Source of the DNA: an uncultured Candidatus Saccharibacteria bacterium
GTDB lineage: Bacteria; Patescibacteriota; Saccharimonadia; Saccharimonadales; UBA10212
Assembly (NCBI GenBank): GCA_964624785.1
Contig: CAZUXR010000004.1
Span: 1 to 50,592, forward strand
Reading direction: 5' to 3'
DNA: 50,592 nucleotides
Shown here piece by piece: positions 7,440 through 22,631 of this stretch (position 1 is its first letter; each line of letters begins with the position of its first letter). Position numbers and translations under genes: made by a program. A model generated the notes under the pieces. The model worked only from the letters and a program-made list of their open reading frames with translations, was not told the DNA's origin and made no database searches.

Positions 7440-9766
7440 ATTCTTAGTTTATTAGGGGCCACTTGGCTTAGATAAAGTTGAAGAGCAGATTTTCCGATTG
7501 CGTATGCATGAGCAATGCCATTTTTAGCGTTGTCTATACCCACAACTGGCGTCGCAATAAGTTCGTGAGTACCAGTGCCTTGACGTGCTTTATTTATCTC
7601 TTCCTCATTCTTCAGCTTCTCAATTTCATCAGCTAGGTGTAGCTTAAGTGTCAGCCGTGCCAAAGACTCAACTAGTTCCGGCGTGTGCTCAATTTCCAGC
7701 TCAATCAAAAGCTCGGCGAATAATTCCCTTAACTCCCCCTGGATTTCAAGCTCGCTAACCATACCCTCGCCCTCGTCAGTGTTTAGCTCGGCTGATACTT
7801 CCAATATCTTATCGAGGATTTCGTTTGCCTTCTTGGTTGTCTCCGGTTCGCTAGTTTCGATCTGTTTGGTTAGCTGAACAAGAGTATCTTCAATCCCCTC
7901 AATCGGCGCGCTGGTTCTAATTAGTCCTTCTGGGATGGTAATTTCCGCTTGTTGCAATGAATCCGGTTCATCCCTGGCCTGCATAGTTAAGGCGACTTCT
8001 TCGGTTTCTGAACCGGACCCGCCCAAAACCTCATTTTCTTCAAGATCTTCTGTAGCTACTTCAAGGGAATAAAAATTGGTTGATCCCTCATCTGACGATT
8101 CTGGGGGTACAGGGATTTTGGGCAGGTCCAGTAAATCAGATTCTGCGATCACATGAGTAAGGGACTCTTGCATCGCAGCAGCTTCTAAGTCTGGTTCAGT
8201 CAGACAGCCTAACACAACTTTCCCGGTTTCGACTAAATCTACAGATCCCTCAATATTCAGTTGGTCTACAGGAATGCCAAGTTTCGGCTCGACTGCACCG
8301 GACTCATCCAGCTCTATGGTACTACGCGGTGTAGGCACAGCCTCATCATTTGCTTCATCTACTACAGGTAGTTCGAGAGAATCAGCTCCTCGTTCTGTGT
8401 CGAGTTGAGAGGGGCCCCCAGCCACAGCTTCCATAGCGGCATTCACTGCAACATCCACAACCAACAACCCAGGATCAGGCGCTTGCTGGTCTGCGCTAGC
8501 TTCTTGTCCGCTGGTGGGTTCTACACTATTGGGTTTAGCAGCCTCGGCTGAAGCTGTTGCGGGTGGTGTGGGTGCTTCATCCGCGCCACCACTACCAATT
8601 TCTGTAACTAAATTGTCTGACTCCAGAGAACCTTCCGGCGCGGACACAGCTGTGTCCGTAATAGCCTCCGCCGACACACTATCTGTGCCGCTAGCAAATT
8701 CAGATGTGGGAATTACAGGTTCGACACCTACTTCTACATGTGGTTCCAAAGTCACCACAGTTTCGTTACTGGCTGAGGATTGTTGCCCTGGTTCAACAGT
8801 AAATTGTTCTGTGTCTTCAGCAGCAGGAGCTACTTCTTTTTCTGGAATCTGTACCTCCGCCGTTTTTACTGAGGCCTGCGCTTTGGGAACCTCGGCGGCA
8901 GTCACATGTGCAATAGTAATTTCTTCGGCTTCGGCTTTAGCTTTGGCGGGTTCTACTTTGTCCGTATTTTTTTTGACTACAGGTTCCACGGGTTTAGATT
9001 CTTCGCCAGTCCCAATTCTAGCCCCAGTTCTAGAAAATTCTTGGCTTGAAGTCCTGGATATTTTGCTCGTTACCACCGGTGCTTTTGGCGCTACGATACT
9101 ATCTGCTGCGATGGTTCTTGTAGGACCGTCCGAAATTTTAACAGCTGCTTCAGCCTTACCGGGGACTTGACTAGAATTGACAGGCGCTAGATTTTCTACG
9201 GTAACCCTGCCGGTGGCTTCAGGTACATAAGCTTCTGCCGCACTAACTAGTTGCTCCGGGGATTTAGTACCTTCAGCCGCAGCCGTCTCCGCTTCAATTT
9301 TCTGCGACCCGACAGGAGTCTGCGCCTCCGGGATTGCTTCGGTCGCCTCACTCTTCCTGTCAATTTCTTCGGCTTTAGCGATTTCGCCAACTTCAGGCTC
9401 GGCCTCTTCGGCCGGAACCCCAACTTCTACCACCTGATTGGCCAGCATCCCCTGAACCTCGGATATTACCGAAGCCGGACCTTCTATTATCATCGCCCCT
9501 TTAGCGGACGGCGGCCAAATAGTATTTATGGCATTGCCCAGCGTCATTTCGGCTCCGCCCAATCGATCGCAACGTATAACCGTGGTAGCGTGGGCAGCTA
9601 GAATTGGCGCTAAAAAGTTATCTAAATCCTCGGCCGCGGCCAGAACCTCCTCGTACGAAAACCCTTCCAAAGGACTGACAAAATTGTTAGGATTCGGTCC
9701 CACATCAAAATCATCAGACGTAGATACGCCTCCGATTTCCATGGTAGCTCCGTAAGTTTCGCTCAA
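7436..9766 (-). CDS. Hypothetical, very acidic, largely low-complexity protein (TTG start)
   Basis: 776-aa ORF rich in E/A/S/T/P/V; TAGGGG RBS-like sequence at 9775-9780; probable helical C-terminus. No family recognised. Confidence 0.7.
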   Translation of the reverse strand: MSETYGATMEIGGVSTSDDFDVGPNPNNFVSPLEGFSYEEVLAAAEDLDNFLAPILAAHATTVIRCDRLGGAEMTLGNAINTIWPPSAKGAMIIEGPASVISEVQGMLANQVVEVGVPAEEAEPEVGEIAKAEEIDRKSEATEAIPEAQTPVGSQKIEAETAAAEGTKSPEQLVSAAEAYVPEATGRVTVENLAPVNSSQVPGKAEAAVKISDGPTRTIAADSIVAPKAPVVTSKISRTSSQEFSRTGARIGTGEESKPVEPVVKKNTDKVEPAKAKAEAEEITIAHVTAAEVPKAQASVKTAEVQIPEKEVAPAAEDTEQFTVEPGQQSSASNETVVTLEPHVEVGVEPVIPTSEFASGTDSVSAEAITDTAVSAPEGSLESDNLVTEIGSGGADEAPTPPATASAEAAKPNSVEPTSGQEASADQQAPDPGLLVVDVAVNAAMEAVAGGPSQLDTERGADSLELPVVDEANDEAVPTPRSTIELDESGAVEPKLGIPVDQLNIEGSVDLVETGKVVLGCLTEPDLEAAAMQESLTHVIAESDLLDLPKIPVPPESSDEGSTNFYSLEVATEDLEENEVLGGSGSETEEVALTMQARDEPDSLQQAEITIPEGLIRTSAPIEGIEDTLVQLTKQIETSEPETTKKANEILDKILEVSAELNTDEGEGMVSELEIQGELRELFAELLIELEIEHTPELVESLARLTLKLHLADEIEKLKNEEEINKARQGTGTHELIATPVVGIDNAKNGIAHAYAIGKSALQLYLSQVAPNKLRI

Positions 9767-9811
9767 TCTAAAAACCCCTATCCCGAGCGGATGGGGGGTC
9801 TATAAAAAACC

Positions 9812-9915
9812 CTTGGCTCCTGCTCGGGAGACTTTATAATCCGTGTCGGGCTTTAACCGTTGCGGCACAGCGTAGGAATCTAACCTACTTCCGGATATTA
9901 TTTGTTAACTTTTGA
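9812..9915 (-). ncRNA. Cobalamin riboswitch, short class II (AdoCbl-variant-like)
   Basis: Minus strand reads AUCC-GGAA-GUAGG-UUAGAUU-CCUAC-GCUGUGCCGC-AA-CGG-UUAAAGC-CCG-ACA-CGGAU ... CUCC-CGAGCA-GGAG. This gives the GGAA junction, P4 with T-loop, P5, P6 and a P13-like hairpin. Boundaries approximate. Confidence 0.72.
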
Positions 9916-9925
9916 CCTTAAATTT

Positions 9926-9934
9926 AGCATATCA
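9926..9934 (-). promoter_or_regulatory. Extended -10 promoter element upstream of the riboswitch
   Basis: TGATATGCT on the minus strand, just upstream of the riboswitch 5' end. Confidence 0.45.
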
Positions 9935-9975
9935 CGCACGGCTAAAATTACGCTGTAGTATTTTTTGCTCCTAAA

Positions 9976-10686
9976 TTACTTGGCTTTAAAACTCGATAAG
10001 ACGCTAGAAAACAGAGAGTAATCGGGGTGGTAGTTGTCATCCTTGAACATAAAAAAATACTTGTGCGAGCCTCGGGTTGGGCCGGTGACCGTTACAACAT
10101 TACCGCCTTCTGTACTGCCAGTTCCCACAACCTGGTGACTTGTATGAGTGTTGTCGCAAGGGAATGTAACTTGCTGCCAACGTGCAGTTAAGGATTCACT
10201 AGCAATAGGAGTTGATGCGTCGCGATTTGCGGGGTTAGCGCCTTGAGTAAAATTAACGCAGTTGTCAGAAATTTGCCCGGGGCTCAACCCTCCGCCCTCA
10301 GAAGGCACAACCGGTAGTAAATAATTAAACGCCATCGTCGTCGGAATTGTATCCATATAAATTCGCACCCACTTATCCGAACTTTTGCCGCCGGTATAGT
10401 TCCACTGGATGCTATGAAAACTAGGATCGTTATCACGCGCAGACTCCTTCCATTGCCCAGGCAGCTGCATACTAAACAGCGGCTCGCTAACTGTCAAAGA
10501 AACGCCCGCAGTAGCTTCATGTTTTGTAACCAGCGGCGTCTGATTGCTTGTAGCGTTGCTGGTTTTTGACTTGCTAATAAAGAAAAAATATATACCTCCG
10601 GATAGCGCCAAAACAGAAGCGGTTATTGTTATCCCTGCAAGGTAGTTTATGCGCCGAACGGCCCTGCCGTGCTTATACATAAGCAT
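9976..10686 (-). CDS. Hypothetical single-pass membrane/exported protein
   Basis: N-terminal TM helix, S/T/G-rich extracellular domain, one Cys pair; PsbP-like ending (LFSSVLSSFKAK). Confidence 0.7.
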   Translation of the reverse strand: MLMYKHGRAVRRINYLAGITITASVLALSGGIYFFFISKSKTSNATSNQTPLVTKHEATAGVSLTVSEPLFSMQLPGQWKESARDNDPSFHSIQWNYTGGKSSDKWVRIYMDTIPTTMAFNYLLPVVPSEGGGLSPGQISDNCVNFTQGANPANRDASTPIASESLTARWQQVTFPCDNTHTSHQVVGTGSTEGGNVVTVTGPTRGSHKYFFMFKDDNYHPDYSLFSSVLSSFKAK

Positions 10687-18336: not shown

Positions 18337-19125
18337 ATGAGTGTCGCTTTAATCAAAGCAACTAACATTCGTCAGGAATTCAAGGTTGGCGACGAAGTAA
18401 TTACGCCCCTCAAAGGAGCAACGTTCGAAATAGGGGAGAATAGTTTTAACATTGTTTACGGACCATCAGGTAGCGGAAAGTCCACGCTCCTAAACGTGCT
18501 AACTGGTTTACAAAATCCAACAAGCGGCAAAGTTCTGTTCGAAGGCCGTGATGTTTATGCTCTAAAGCCAGATGAGCTTGCCCACTTCCGCGCTAACCAA
18601 ATTGGGATTGTCTACCAAACAAACTATTGGGTAAAGAGCCTGAATGTCATAGAGAACGTATCTATGCCGCTATATTTTTTGGGATACACTAGGCCTAAAG
18701 CGGCAAAGATTGCTATGACAGCTCTGGAGCGGATTAACATGGGTGGTTATGCAAAAAAATTCCCTGTTTTACTATCCGGCGGCGAACAGCAGAGGATAGC
18801 GATGGCTCGCGCACTAGTTAATAATCCCCTGTTTATAATCGCCGACGAACCAACCGGCAGCCTAGATAGCAAGAACGGAGACATGATTATGAACTTGCTC
18901 CAAAACTGCCAAACAGAATTTAAACGCACTGTTATATTGGTCACCCACAACATGGAATACCTGCCACTCGCCGACCACCTATTACACATCCAAGACGGCG
19001 AAGTGCAAGAAATGAGCAACGCTTCTATCCAAACAGCGACCAACGATATGATAGACGAAATGCGCGAGCGCATTAACAAACTAGCTCGATCCAAGCAGTC
19101 TCAAAACAAAAAGGCAGCAAAATAA
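18337..19125 (+). CDS. ABC transporter ATP-binding protein (MacB/LolD/FtsE family)
   Basis: Walker A GPSGSGKST, signature LSGGEQQR, Walker B IIADEPTG, VTH H-loop. Confidence 0.93.
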   Translation: MSVALIKATNIRQEFKVGDEVITPLKGATFEIGENSFNIVYGPSGSGKSTLLNVLTGLQNPTSGKVLFEGRDVYALKPDELAHFRANQIGIVYQTNYWVKSLNVIENVSMPLYFLGYTRPKAAKIAMTALERINMGGYAKKFPVLLSGGEQQRIAMARALVNNPLFIIADEPTGSLDSKNGDMIMNLLQNCQTEFKRTVILVTHNMEYLPLADHLLHIQDGEVQEMSNASIQTATNDMIDEMRERINKLARSKQSQNKKAAK

Positions 19126-20368: not shown

Positions 20369-21079
20369 TTACCCCTTTGCGAATTCCAGCCAGTTTCGGT
20401 ATGGTTGTCCGCTTGGTATATAGCCAGCAGTCTTTCGTTGGCCGTTTATAAAAGGCGGGTTGTAGTTAACGCGCAGTATTGCACCGGCTAATTTATTTGC
20501 CCTATCTTCCATATTTTTGGGCAAAATCTTGTTATCTAGTTTTACGAAGTCCATATCCGAAAATTGTTGCCGGTTCATCGCCGCGCCGCGTAATGTTTCG
20601 TCTCTCATAGTCTGCTCATGTTTTTTCTTGTTTACCATGTACTCGGACAAGGACGTAGCATGTATTATTCCAGCTAAAGCTTCTATTCGTCTGCGCCCAT
20701 CTTTGCCAAGAGCATCTATAACGCACCCGCCAGGCACGGCTAGATTTACGGGATCTTCTTCTCCAAAGTCCGTATTAGTGGGCAAGGCCTCTGGTACTCG
20801 TGCAGCAGATGTCTCTTGCTGACCCAGCGCCATATTTACTACAGTGATTTTTCCTTCATTTATAAGTCCGTGAGCAGTCTTGGCTAGTTTTACCAAATCG
20901 GTCTGGCCGTGCTGGCCTTCAAAAAATTCGGTTACAAAAACTAATCCGCTAATAGCTATGAGTTCGGGAAGTTCAGCGCTTCGTTCTCCTTCCGATACGC
21001 AAAACCACTCTTTTACCGCTTCGTCCGCGGCAATCCCATCAAATGCTTCATCTATTTTAGGCCTTTTATTTGCTGTCAT
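20369..21079 (-). CDS. Hypothetical protein
   Basis: 236-aa ORF filling the gap between the permease and the tRNA; no motif recognised. Confidence 0.55.
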   Translation of the reverse strand: MTANKRPKIDEAFDGIAADEAVKEWFCVSEGERSAELPELIAISGLVFVTEFFEGQHGQTDLVKLAKTAHGLINEGKITVVNMALGQQETSAARVPEALPTNTDFGEEDPVNLAVPGGCVIDALGKDGRRRIEALAGIIHATSLSEYMVNKKKHEQTMRDETLRGAAMNRQQFSDMDFVKLDNKILPKNMEDRANKLAGAILRVNYNPPFINGQRKTAGYIPSGQPYRNWLEFAKG

Positions 21080-21124
21080 AAGAACAGACTACTCCGAAAA
21101 AAGCTATTTTAGCAACTTTGTTCC

Positions 21125-21199
21125 TGGCTCCGGGGACTGGATTCGAACCAGCGACCTAGTGGTTAACAGCCACCCGCTCTACCGCTGAGCTACCCCGGA
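21125..21199 (-). tRNA. tRNA-Asn(GTT), CCA encoded
   Basis: TCCGGGG TA GCTC AGCGGTA GAGC G GGTGG CTGTTAA CCACT AGGTC GCTGG TTCGAAT CCAGT CCCCGGA G CCA; full cloverleaf with a U1-A72 pair. Confidence 0.97.
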
Positions 21200-21438
21200 A
21201 TATATTGCTTCAAAAACTCTCGTCCGTTGCCTGATTTAAGTTGTTTTTCTCTTTTCAACGCCTCGGTGCGAGTAGCTATTGATTCTTGGTAAATCGATAC
21301 CCATTCGCCTTGGTACCGAGAGGTAAAATCTTTAAACGTATGGGCATTATGTTGCTGAAGTCTTCTTGTTATATCTTCAGTTTGTCCAGTATACGTTTTG
21401 CCCGCTGTCTTATTGTAGATTACATAGACTGTAAACAT
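21190..21438 (-). CDS. Small GIY-YIG nuclease (UPF0213/SLX1-like)
   Basis: VYVIY...TYTGQT...RRLQQHN...EALKREKQLKSG. Last codons and TAG stop overlap tRNA nt 1-10. Confidence 0.9.
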   Translation of the reverse strand: MFTVYVIYNKTAGKTYTGQTEDITRRLQQHNAHTFKDFTSRYQGEWVSIYQESIATRTEALKREKQLKSGNGREFLKQYIPG

Positions 21439-21455
21439 TAGTACTGATTATGCAT

Positions 21456-21494
21456 CCGCTCTACCTTCGCTGTCCAGCGAAGAGCTACCCCGGA
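21456..21494 (-). pseudogene. Duplicated 5' fragment of tRNA-Asn with a palindrome in the D-loop
   Basis: TCCGGGGTAGCTC-ttcgctggacAGCgaa-GGTAGAGCGG versus the tRNA's TCCGGGGTAGCTC-AGC-GGTAGAGCGG. Confidence 0.88.
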
Positions 21495-21575
21495 ACGAAC
21501 CAGGAACAAAACTGCCAAAAATTTAAAATTACTAAAAACGACTGCAACAAACTTACCGCCATCAATATCCACACT

Positions 21576-21584
21576 ATAATAACA
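21576..21584 (-). promoter_or_regulatory. Probable promoter for the tRNA-Asn/GIY-YIG unit
   Basis: Minus strand TTGGTA-18 nt-TATTAT with extended -10 TG (TGTTATTAT). Confidence 0.45.
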
Positions 21585-21644
21585 GATTGGCAACCGTTCT
21601 ACCAAGCGCGCCAAAAAATACCCCTTTGTTTTGGCGTGACTATC

Positions 21645-22631
21645 TTAAGACGCGTCCGAAACAACCAGCGAGGCAAAAATTACGGTGTTGTCACTATAAT
21701 GCCTGGTCAAAAGGTTGAACGAACCGCCGCAAGTAATCAGCCTTAGGCCAGCGTAATTGATGTTGCCATAGACTTCGGATGTTGGAAAGTTCCCTTGCGG
21801 AAATTGCTGGATCTTTGTTATAACAAATTGCGCCACAGAGCCGTCCGCTCGATTGACCGTAATCTTTTGGCCCGGCGTAAGTTCGTGCAATCGCCAAAAG
21901 ACCGCTATACCGTGTACGTTGTCCAAATGGCCTACGATTATGGACGGACCGATTTCACCAGGCGTAGGACTTTGTTTGTACCACCCAGCCATAGTGTATT
22001 GTTCTGGCACTTCGATCGAACCATCTGGCCGCAAGCCGATAGTTGTCAGATCGGTATCTAGCTGAATAGATGGAATGCTCAGGCGGGTAGGCGTTGAGTG
22101 GGGCAAGGATTGTTTTACCGGAGTGGGCGGAGCAGCAATTGCTCGCGTTACCGCACTAGCCGCCAAGGGCGGAGAGGGTAAGGCTACGGCTCGCAGACTA
22201 AAAAAGATTATCCCTAGAGCCCCTAGCAGTAGCAGACCGCCAGATAGTACTAGCTCTTGCTTTTTTGATCTTTTAGATTTACTGGCGGTCTTGCGGTCTT
22301 GCTTGCCTTTAGCTGTTGCCGGCTGAGTATTATTAACCGCTAACACAAGCTTTCGGCCGCGGCCCAGCGGCATGCTTATAAGTTGTTTTTGACGAGTTTT
22401 GGGCCTTGCCGTGGAGCGCAGCTTCCGGGCATCGCTAGCGGGCTTGCGAGAAGTATTGGACTTTGCCGGTTTTTTGGCAGCGGGCTTTTTAGGCACCGAT
22501 TTCGCTAATCGCGGCTTTTTAGTAACCCCTACTTTTGGCAATGTCGAGGCCAAATCTGTCCCACGCGAAAGCGGCGACCGCTTTTTTACCGGACGCCGCT
22601 TAGCAGATTTTGATTTTAGATCTTTTGCCAC
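21645..22631 (-). CDS. Class F sortase with long Lys/Arg-rich cytoplasmic N-terminus
   Basis: PTRLSIPSI, GWY..SPTPGEIG, IVGHLD (catalytic His), LRLITCGG (catalytic Cys), YSDN (Asn in place of Arg, typical of class F). Confidence 0.9.
   Translation of the reverse strand: MAKDLKSKSAKRRPVKKRSPLSRGTDLASTLPKVGVTKKPRLAKSVPKKPAAKKPAKSNTSRKPASDARKLRSTARPKTRQKQLISMPLGRGRKLVLAVNNTQPATAKGKQDRKTASKSKRSKKQELVLSGGLLLLGALGIIFFSLRAVALPSPPLAASAVTRAIAAPPTPVKQSLPHSTPTRLSIPSIQLDTDLTTIGLRPDGSIEVPEQYTMAGWYKQSPTPGEIGPSIIVGHLDNVHGIAVFWRLHELTPGQKITVNRADGSVAQFVITKIQQFPQGNFPTSEVYGNINYAGLRLITCGGSFNLLTRHYSDNTVIFASLVVSDAS

Follow-up and report, generated by a model that had tools for sequence, protein, structure and literature searches.

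Why does the gene of a small GIY-YIG nuclease lie between a broken and an intact copy of the same transfer RNA (tRNA) gene? This question is raised by a locus in a stretch of 50,592 nucleotides (nt) from an uncultured Candidatus Saccharibacteria bacterium (assembly GCA_964624785.1, contig CAZUXR010000004.1, positions 1 to 50,592), which is called the window here. On its minus strand an open reading frame (ORF) for an 82-residue protein follows a hairpin-bearing fragment of tRNA-Asn and runs directly into the intact tRNA-Asn gene. The answer we favor, with moderate confidence, is that the locus is a copy from a family of minimal selfish cassettes in which a single-domain GIY-YIG gene of about 80 residues is combined with a short GC-rich hairpin of its own.

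A nuclease gene between two copies of tRNA-Asn

Coordinates are window positions, G000 denotes the window's own genome, and G, C and L numbers are our handles for genomes, contigs and loci. The minus-strand order given in the initial annotation, i.e. tRNA-Asn copy, spacer, 82-residue GIY-YIG ORF and intact tRNA-Asn, was confirmed base for base (Table 1). The upstream piece is the 5' part of tRNA-Asn in which three D-loop bases are exchanged for 16 palindromic bases. As had also been noted, the ORF ends ATT CCG GGG TAG, with tRNA nt 1-10 inside the coding sequence and tRNA nt 8-10 as its TAG stop; its last four codons, TAT ATT CCG GGG, and the stop are all leader and tRNA sequence. The downstream tRNA-Asn must be functional because it is the only one among the 36 tRNAs which ARAGORN finds in the 844-kilobase, 38-contig genome. 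Four relatives have a tRNA-Asn of 100% identical sequence. The cassette is thus placed, as described, after the region upstream of the tRNA and before the intact, single-copy tRNA itself.

By our own arithmetic an exact tRNA 13-mer within 450 nt upstream of the gene has a chance expectation of about 4e-4, and since a collinear 10-mer follows it and the layout recurs in relatives, a chance origin of the tRNA copy is untenable. Contigs from two soil-metagenome runs of one study cover positions 21176-21487 (run X1, which may be the source sample of the assembly) and 21322-21623 (run X2) with zero differences, and because they reproduce the junctions in this way an artefact of binning or assembly is ruled out. 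Upstream of the fragment there is a leader of 80 nt, preceded by a promoter-like site which contains AATCTGTTAT, a sequence resembling the TATAAT..ATCTGTT motif preceding tRNA genes of relatives; the promoter proposed earlier is therefore present as a consensus match, albeit at only nine of twelve positions. A second promoter-like match, whose first hexamer lies in the palindrome loop and whose second ends 8 nt before the ATG, would, if used, yield a nearly leaderless nuclease mRNA.

Table 1. Parts of the tRNA-Asn locus, in window positions
Feature	Position	Strand	Basis or remark
Promoter-like site TTGGTA-18-TATTAT	21576..21605	-	Consensus scan, 9/12 positions
tRNA-Asn 5'-end copy, -1 to nt 13, TTCCGGGGTAGCTC	21482..21495	-	Exact 14-mer, same as 21200..21187
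Perfect 18-nt palindrome CTTCGCTG-GA-CAGCGAAG	21465..21482	-	Replaces three D-loop bases
Second tRNA-copy block, nt 17-26, GGTAGAGCGG	21456..21465	-	Exact 10-mer, collinear with tRNA
AT-rich 17-nt spacer preceding ATG	21439..21455	-	Sequence read
Second promoter-like match TGGACA-18-CATAAT	21447..21476	-	Consensus scan, 10/12; overlaps palindrome and spacer
82-residue single-domain GIY-YIG ORF	21190..21438	-	Pfam PF01541
Intact tRNA-Asn(GTT)	21125..21199	-	ARAGORN; Rfam tRNA 70.5 bits; 10-nt overlap with ORF

Recurrence of the layout at tRNA genes

Two sets of loci were compared with the window. The family set comprises 49 genomes of the bacterial family and 77 loci, i.e. all matches with the frameshifted pieces in G020 counted once and a copy on contig C27 of G000 added. 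The species-wide set of 79 loci, from Patescibacteria-type, Bacteroidota, Ignavibacteria and other assemblies, was drawn from one genome per species and queried with the window protein alone, and is for this reason biased toward relatives of the window ORF. GIY-YIG genes of this kind are present in 32 of the 49 family genomes, with a maximum of seven per genome and four in the window's own. A same-strand tRNA lies directly downstream at 14 of the 77 family loci (Asn 2, Glu 2, Leu 3, Ser 2, Met 2, Gln 1, Ala 1 and Arg 1), and nine of these 14 ORFs have their stop within the tRNA. A piece of the same or a sister tRNA was found upstream at 13 of the 14, ten of them exact over at least 8 nt and three diverged and recognized by eye; the sole locus where none was found is L095. 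In the species-wide set the tRNA is directly downstream at 16 of the 79 loci, all 16 with an exact upstream fragment of at least 9 nt. Altogether the layout occurs among relatives at tRNA-Asn and about 13 other tRNA types.

The closest relatives found for the window ORF are at the same tRNA. The four best species-wide matches (52-54% identity) and L166 all lie at tRNA-Asn, as does the frameshifted copy in G020, which is 62% identical to the window ORF, and each fragment fits the local tRNA-Asn, though these tRNAs differ among lineages. In a quick tree with Shimodaira-Hasegawa-like approximate likelihood ratio test (SH-aLRT) support, whose deep forks are without resolution, ORFs cluster by tRNA type, from which the association with each tRNA type appears to be old.

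A second full cassette is present in the same genome at tRNA-Glu (C27:9860-10336; L004 1440-1919). There the first 11 bases of tRNA-Glu are followed by an 85-residue ORF with its TAG stop in the tRNA and by the intact tRNA, and 17 nt past the latter comes the remainder of a tRNA from base 12 on, in which the anticodon arm has turned palindromic. A matching 3' tRNA piece beyond the intact tRNA was found at L009, L011, L012, L098, L100 and L004, and at such loci a second, disabled tRNA appears to have been split by the ORF and the intact tRNA together. On C27 the intact tRNA is also bracketed by a 14-nt inverted repeat, and the unit of tRNA bases 12-75 plus 17 nt recurs after it until the contig ends inside the next repeat, which may reflect a tandem array or an assembly break.

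Copies of the last 12-21 tRNA bases were also seen 125-170 nt downstream of many tRNAs (L098 in G035, L051 in G021, L037, L038 and L046), among them tRNA-Arg(TCG), tRNA-Ser(TGA), tRNA-Ser(GCT) and tRNA-Lys(CTT) of G000. The segment before the copy is GC-rich, structured and about 100-150 nt long at L098 and L051, and at L098 the terminator is duplicated too. They may represent either the cassette's counterpart on the 3' side or a different tRNA-linked repeat.

The hairpin as a partner of the nuclease gene

A perfect GC-rich hairpin (arm of at least 6, GC of at least 60%, loop of at most 4) lies within 130 nt upstream of the ORF at 23 of 30 tRNA-type loci, compared with one of 29 control windows placed 300-430 nt upstream. 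Hairpins in the clade closest to the window ORF have the core TCCGCC..GGCGGA irrespective of the tRNA concerned (Asn, Gln, Pro, Met, Ser or Phe). Homologous hairpins occupy the same place in the tRNA-Asn cassettes of relatives, where positions T1, C3, G14 and A16 are invariant in the alignment and five of the seven pairs are substituted on both sides in a compensatory manner. Two sister ORFs in G035 (SH-aLRT 96), one at tRNA-Arg and the other at tRNA-Met, have in common a module of two hairpins which occupies the same position in the D-loop and in which the changes are likewise compensatory.

The hairpin also occurs without the gene. The window palindrome has two palindromic copies in the 844-kb genome when up to three mismatches are allowed, and the second is an ORF-less twin on the minus strand of contig C9 (30656-30760; L006), in which a TATAAT promoter is followed by GCCAATGTAGCTC, the palindrome TTCGCTGTACAGCGAA, 34 nt, an intact tRNA-Thr(CGT) and, directly, tRNA-Gly(CCC); the palindrome is preceded by GTAGCTC of a tRNA fragment. 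Another ORF-less case is a pseudo-tRNA-Gln directly after a promoter on contig C6 (11760-12024; L067 360-625), in which bases 1-14 are present, the D-loop contains a structured insert of 43 nt and the palindrome TCCCGATCAGGTCGGGA takes the place of the anticodon arm, after which come a second promoter-like box and an intact tRNA-Gln(CTG). Hairpins are present in 3' fragments downstream of tRNAs too. Because of the linkage at tRNA-type loci and the ORF-less copies, the hairpin is best regarded as a conserved partner of the nuclease gene that probably travels with it and can occur alone. It is thus more than the simple disruption of the D-loop for which it was first taken. The palindrome is also not a mark of a break junction, a possibility which was rejected since tRNA sequence runs on at both its sides.

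A 42-nt perfect palindrome of another kind (TGGTG, a G run, a C run and CACCA) lies on contig C18 of G000 at 18622-18663; it may be an artefact of assembly close to the end of the contig or else a homopolymer hairpin.

Empty sites and the duplicated 5' end

The tRNA-Asn site is filled in G000, in G020 and at L112-L115 and L166, and it is empty, with the same or nearly the same tRNA-Asn, in G035, G032, G017, G019, G011, G022, G031 and G001. Presence and absence at one conserved site among relatives is a pattern expected of free-standing homing endonuclease genes. In G035, G032 and G017 an identical 75-nt tRNA-Asn has nothing before it but a short leader and the usual promoter (TTGAC..TATAATCAATCTGTT); no GIY-YIG match was found in G017 and G032, and those of G035 lie elsewhere. 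A structured leader of about 120 nt is common to G020, G011 and G019. It abuts the tRNA in G011 and G019 and in G020 ends about 290 nt before the tRNA, where the fragment begins. The filled site of G020 furthermore shares its upstream protein gene with the empty site of G001. The empty allele by which the initial annotation could be checked thus exists in relatives.

A conserved leader of this kind, about 120-130 nt between promoter and tRNA-Asn, was observed at L038 (G020), L041 (G019), L042 (G022), L047 (G011) and L050 (G031); it starts with GGGAAAAGAGCAG, ends in a GAGGAAAACCGTAGGTTGTCCTC hairpin and matches no Rfam family at gathering score.

The duplicated segment varies in extent. At L166 it is an exact 59-nt direct repeat of 38 nt of leader and tRNA nt 1-21, at L033 the repeat takes in the -10 box of the promoter, and in the window it spans positions -1 to 26. 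Repeat lengths from about 11 to 59 nt led us to reject a fixed-length target-site duplication, and this variation argues against a fixed staggered cut. The initial annotation proposed that the element rebuilds the tRNA 5' end from its own last codons. The repeats at L166 and L033 show otherwise: the ORF runs out into duplicated host leader and tRNA, and its C-terminal codons are host-derived. At L112 the ORF lies between two fragments that each bear a hairpin, both of them before the intact tRNA, which suggests repeated rounds of hitting and duplication.

The nuclease

The protein matches PF01541 with an E value of 2.3e-15 and 57.1 bits (cut-off 22.6) over residues 2-72 and model positions 2-73 of 78. 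In an alignment of ten tRNA-type ORFs Y5, Y16, G18, R26, H30 and E64 are invariant, among which we take the two tyrosines to be those of the GIY and YIG motifs, the arginine to be catalytic and the glutamate to bind metal. An AlphaFold2 model of the 82 residues (mean predicted local distance difference test score 87.4) has the element order E-E-H-E-H-H, i.e. the predicted fold is the three-stranded sheet with flanking helices of solved GIY-YIG members. Foldseek places it nearest to 1ZG2 (UPF0213; E 1.5e-4), then to HIGLE, Slx1, 1YWL (UPF0213) and the I-TevI catalytic domain, and phmmer matches 1YWL at E 9e-4, so that UPF0213 proteins are the nearest solved sequences. The protein is a bare catalytic domain, and the separate DNA-binding domain through which homing endonucleases are specific for long sites is absent from its 82 residues. 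An NCBIfam model of group I intron endonucleases gives a weak match below threshold (23.6 bits against a cut-off of 56).

The inverted-repeat form and other RNA genes

Away from tRNAs the family takes another form. At 42 of the 63 non-tRNA family loci the ORF is tightly enclosed by an exact inverted repeat of 9-21 nt, with the left arm 10-75 nt before the start and the right arm over the stop; per locus one would expect, by our own arithmetic, about 0.02 matches of a 9-mer by chance. The repeat types track ORF clades, with paired changes between loci. In one clade the repeat starts TCCGCC and ends GGCGGA, the core of the closed hairpins at tRNA genes, and because of this common core the two forms look like a gene inside the hairpin loop and a gene beside the hairpin. 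Three loci of the inverted-repeat form, with repeats of 18-20 nt, are found at other stable RNA genes, namely inside a 23S ribosomal RNA (rRNA) gene (L026, G045 C7), inside a 16S rRNA gene (L081, G045 C3) and 33 nt before an RNase P RNA gene (L077, G046 C3). The 23S locus has two group I introns downstream as well.

Another clade (L013, L014, L015, L019, L068, L071, L076 and L103) is bounded by ATCCCGTTAGAGCCAG and its complement. At L013, L014, L015 and L019, the loci examined closely, the cassette is located exactly at the start codon of unrelated host genes; the right arm ends GGGATGA, in which the cassette stop overlaps a new ATG of the host gene, and the old (A/G)TGA stays on the left. 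At L015 and L019 an ORF-less remnant hairpin lies beside the cassette.

Relation to known systems

Integrase-type islands at tRNA genes duplicate the 3' end, carry a tyrosine or serine recombinase and are kilobases long. They share with the window locus the tRNA gene as landing place and a partial duplication which keeps a working tRNA. The window locus in contrast duplicates the 5' end, has no recombinase gene and is about 300 base pairs (bp) in size. A similar principle, a small nuclease with a palindromic hairpin recognized in single-stranded DNA and ORF-less copies spread in trans, is known from REP/BIME sequences with RAYT and from IS200/IS605; these, however, have HUH tyrosine nucleases, no tie to tRNA and no regeneration of a target gene. 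The Seg proteins of phages are GIY-YIG enzymes with additional DNA-binding parts.

To the initial annotation no named system with this layout was known, yet a named relative exists. The Ssn nucleases are stand-alone GIY-YIG proteins of about 94 residues which bind to the NTS/SRM hairpin repeat and, exclusively in single-stranded DNA, cut next to it, and their genes are typically flanked by this repeat (PMC11893778, Chenal et al. 2025, main text). The same text describes a host-level role in transformation for the enzyme of Neisseria, points out the likeness of the system to insertion sequences and cites REP/RAYT and IS200/IS605 in its discussion (PMC11893778). As far as described there, the likeness to the window locus lies in a stand-alone GIY-YIG protein of about 80-95 residues and a gene tied to a short GC-rich hairpin, and it extends to a family relative, L105 (29% identical to the window ORF, E 3e-9), with a near-canonical NTS-gene-NTS arrangement. 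Ssn nucleases, which form CDD family cd10448, are the closest described proteins. The window palindrome is nevertheless distinct, is placed on the 5' side only and lies within a tRNA fragment adjoining an intact tRNA; the NTS/SRM core ATTCC(C)GC..GCG(G)GAAT has no match at the window locus. The word tRNA is absent from the main text of the Ssn paper, to which this statement is confined (PMC11893778).

GIY-YIG ORFs in non-intron insertions of rRNA genes were published for bacteria of the candidate phyla radiation (Tsurumaki et al. 2024, PMC11270868). These also concern ultra-small bacteria and small GIY-YIG ORFs outside introns of group I and of group II, and members of the present family likewise lie inside 16S and 23S rRNA genes. 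They differ in that the main text treats rRNA genes only, judges the GIY-YIG ORFs to be outside homing and describes no hairpin partner, tRNA fragments or target duplication, the terms tRNA and inverted repeat having no occurrence in it (PMC11270868). Among tRNA genes an intron-free GIY-YIG gene, as in the window, is represented by SegB, a free-standing homing endonuclease of the T-even phage tRNA gene cluster which is preferentially inherited through cleavage of DNA without its gene (PMC2330249). As far as described in that source, Seg genes are phage genes placed between genes and come without tRNA fragment, hairpin or duplicated 5' end, whereas the window cassette is chromosomal (PMC2330249). 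No account of the tRNA layout was found in the full-text literature searched, with subscription journals and supplements outside its scope; the layout is real, recurrent and apparently unpublished.

Origin and mechanism

How such a cassette might arise can be outlined as follows. By analogy with Ssn, the protein would recognize its own palindrome in single-stranded DNA and cut beside it. Copying of the hairpin, alone or together with the gene, may start from such cuts and lead into the D-arm region of tRNA genes, where hairpins can form; tRNA genes would be targeted because their arms form hairpins in single strands. A hit by the hairpin would kill an essential single-copy tRNA, and only events which also duplicate the leader and the 5' part of the tRNA would survive and leave the pattern of fragment, hairpin, ORF and intact tRNA. 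The cassette lies in the transcription unit of the single tRNA-Asn gene, downstream of a disabled copy of bases 1-26 of this tRNA; the ORF is presumably transcribed from the tRNA's upstream region, and its stop is supplied by the TAG inside the tRNA. Because the end of the ORF lies in the tRNA, translation and 5' maturation by RNase P of one transcript would be mutually exclusive, and cutting by RNase P would leave a non-stop mRNA.

Several points weigh against a selfish cassette of this kind. For the window locus itself no syntenic empty counterpart was found, as none of the 30 family tRNA-Asn loci shares its flanking genes, nor was the empty allele found in contigs of four soil runs from one study; a joint of 21295 to 21458 in the soil contigs is of low likeness (12 of 77 nt differ) and derives from a related organism. 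The sequence is compatible with insertion inside the tRNA or in the leader. The window ORF is just 52-62% identical to its nearest relatives, and copies within one genome are diverged, with recent movement not seen. Most loci, 63 of the 77 in the family and 63 of the 79 species-wide, are away from tRNAs. The hairpin has two copies here, compared with the hundreds typical of Ssn motifs, its folding energy alone is unexceptional (DNA z-score -1.4), and palindromes are compatible with a function in DNA and in RNA alike. The pairing figure of 96% for the hairpin alignment is circular, since rows were chosen for being palindromes; its informative point is that alignable hairpins differ by double changes. 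Finally, 73 of the 77 family ORFs are intact despite deep divergence, which suits a function kept by the host as well as a selfish one. From the reading of the initial annotation, a selfish cassette invading a tRNA, the layout, its recurrence and the empty sites stand. The rebuilding from codons, the palindrome as damage and the lack of a named relative do not, and neither does a general tie to tRNA, since about four fifths of the relatives are elsewhere.

It is also possible, although we hold this more tentatively, that the hairpin and not the gene is the moving unit. The nuclease would swap its hairpin into hairpins of stable-RNA genes, i.e. the D, anticodon and T arms of tRNAs and helix tips of rRNAs, with a coupled duplication that regenerates the 5' end of the target, and since these targets are essential single-copy genes survival would demand such a duplication. 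The gene would lie inside the hairpin loop in the inverted-repeat form and beside the hairpin in the tRNA form. If so, an element of about 300 bp would be mobile and autonomous, which would make it one of the smallest known; its catalytic family would be new to transposition in prokaryotes, and nuclease translation and tRNA maturation would be joined by a built-in switch.

Rather unlikely, in our opinion, is a domesticated host nuclease, Ssn-like and for example policing incoming or replicating single-stranded DNA, which is expressed from the strong promoters of stable RNAs; the tRNA fragments and palindromes would then be by-products left behind by its activity or by the ordinary formation of tRNA-linked repeats, and a transposition cycle would have no part in them. 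The intact ORFs and invariant catalytic residues are what one would expect of it, as are the old association with tRNA types by which ORFs cluster and the many other ORF-less partial tRNA copies in the window's genome, and a host-level role in transformation has a precedent in Neisseria (PMC11893778, main text). Against this, distribution is patchy, with 17 of the 49 family genomes lacking the gene and empty sites in close relatives; several diverged copies occur per genome, each with its own hairpin type; some copies lie inside rRNA genes; four in the bacterial family are decayed; and sister copies reside at two different tRNAs of one genome. Patchiness, multiple copies, copies in rRNA genes, decay and sister copies at different tRNAs are all marks of selfish elements.

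A device acting at the level of RNA is improbable. The upstream tRNA piece and hairpin would here be kept for a role in the transcript, either as a 5' stem-loop stabilizing the nuclease mRNA or as a decoy 5' acceptor strand which, in competition for the 3' strand of the tRNA, sets the balance of translation and tRNA maturation, and the history of the DNA would be secondary. This would agree with three observations: at most loci the start codon comes 17-45 nt after a hairpin or the left arm of an inverted repeat, the stop codon is inside the tRNA, and in a predicted fold of the whole unit (minimum free energy -109 kcal/mol, z-score -2.4) the 3' strand of the tRNA is paired with the upstream fragment and not with its own 5' end. 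The fold is however a single-sequence prediction, only about 5% of the sequence words occur in the RNA runs, probably from the tRNA itself, hairpin-bearing fragments exist without an ORF, and hairpins in 3' fragments downstream of a tRNA cannot serve the 5' end of an mRNA.

That the locus is a remnant of a conventional element, either an integrase-type island which used the tRNA as attachment site or a group I intron, now degenerate, and its homing endonuclease, is very improbable, for although tRNA genes are classic integration sites, an insert, scoring as a group I intron in two cases, splits tRNA-Asn at nt 34-37 in three relatives and the NCBIfam endonuclease model matches weakly, the duplicated part is the 5' and not the 3' end, the copies are only about 300 bp apart, the break at nt 26 is outside the anticodon loop, no recombinase, integrase or transposase was found among the seven neighboring genes, and in 20900-21800 there is no match even at E up to 10 to Intron_gpI, a model by which true introns in tRNA and rRNA genes of the bacterial family are given 66-83 bits. 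The description of a compact cassette of about 300 bp without integrase, transposase or intron therefore holds up in both the Rfam and the neighbor check.

If the locus is indeed a minimal selfish cassette, a bare nuclease domain of 80 residues and a hairpin of 16-20 nt would suffice for a persistent genomic parasite, one which colonizes the genes for tRNA, rRNA and RNase P RNA, the most essential of a cell and the most transcribed, without killing it. Ssn single-strand nucleases would be extended from host-level roles to a mobile lifestyle, and the many broken tRNA copies and rRNA insertions of ultra-small bacteria would have a cause. Annotators would be warned that palindrome-bearing half-tRNAs are cassette arms and not noise, and tools for single-stranded DNA could draw on natural hairpin-specific nucleases, each with a known partner sequence.

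Surroundings of the locus and other tRNA inserts

The neighboring genes encode an ABC ATPase, an FtsX permease, a sortase, a glutaredoxin and a glutamate dehydrogenase, and two ORFs have no Pfam match. No terminator was called downstream of tRNA-Asn, and the ORF has none of its own. No repeat of the whole region was found elsewhere in the genome, the only cross-match being between tRNA-Thr and tRNA-Asn. Other Rfam families have no match in the cassette at their cut-offs; IMES-1 (24 bits against 81) and two small-RNA models far below theirs were taken as chance.

On contig C19 of G000 (9551-10219; L066) ARAGORN did not call a tRNA-Met-like gene whose anticodon loop is interrupted by a group I intron (RF00028, 66 bits). 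An insert of about 220-240 nt interrupts tRNA-Asn at bases 34-37 in G034 (L052), G014 (L053) and G013 (L057/L065); the contig of G013 ends inside the 3' half, and the inserts of G034 and G014, to which scoring was confined, match the group I intron model with 72-74 bits. tRNA-Asn is an unusual host for a bacterial tRNA intron.

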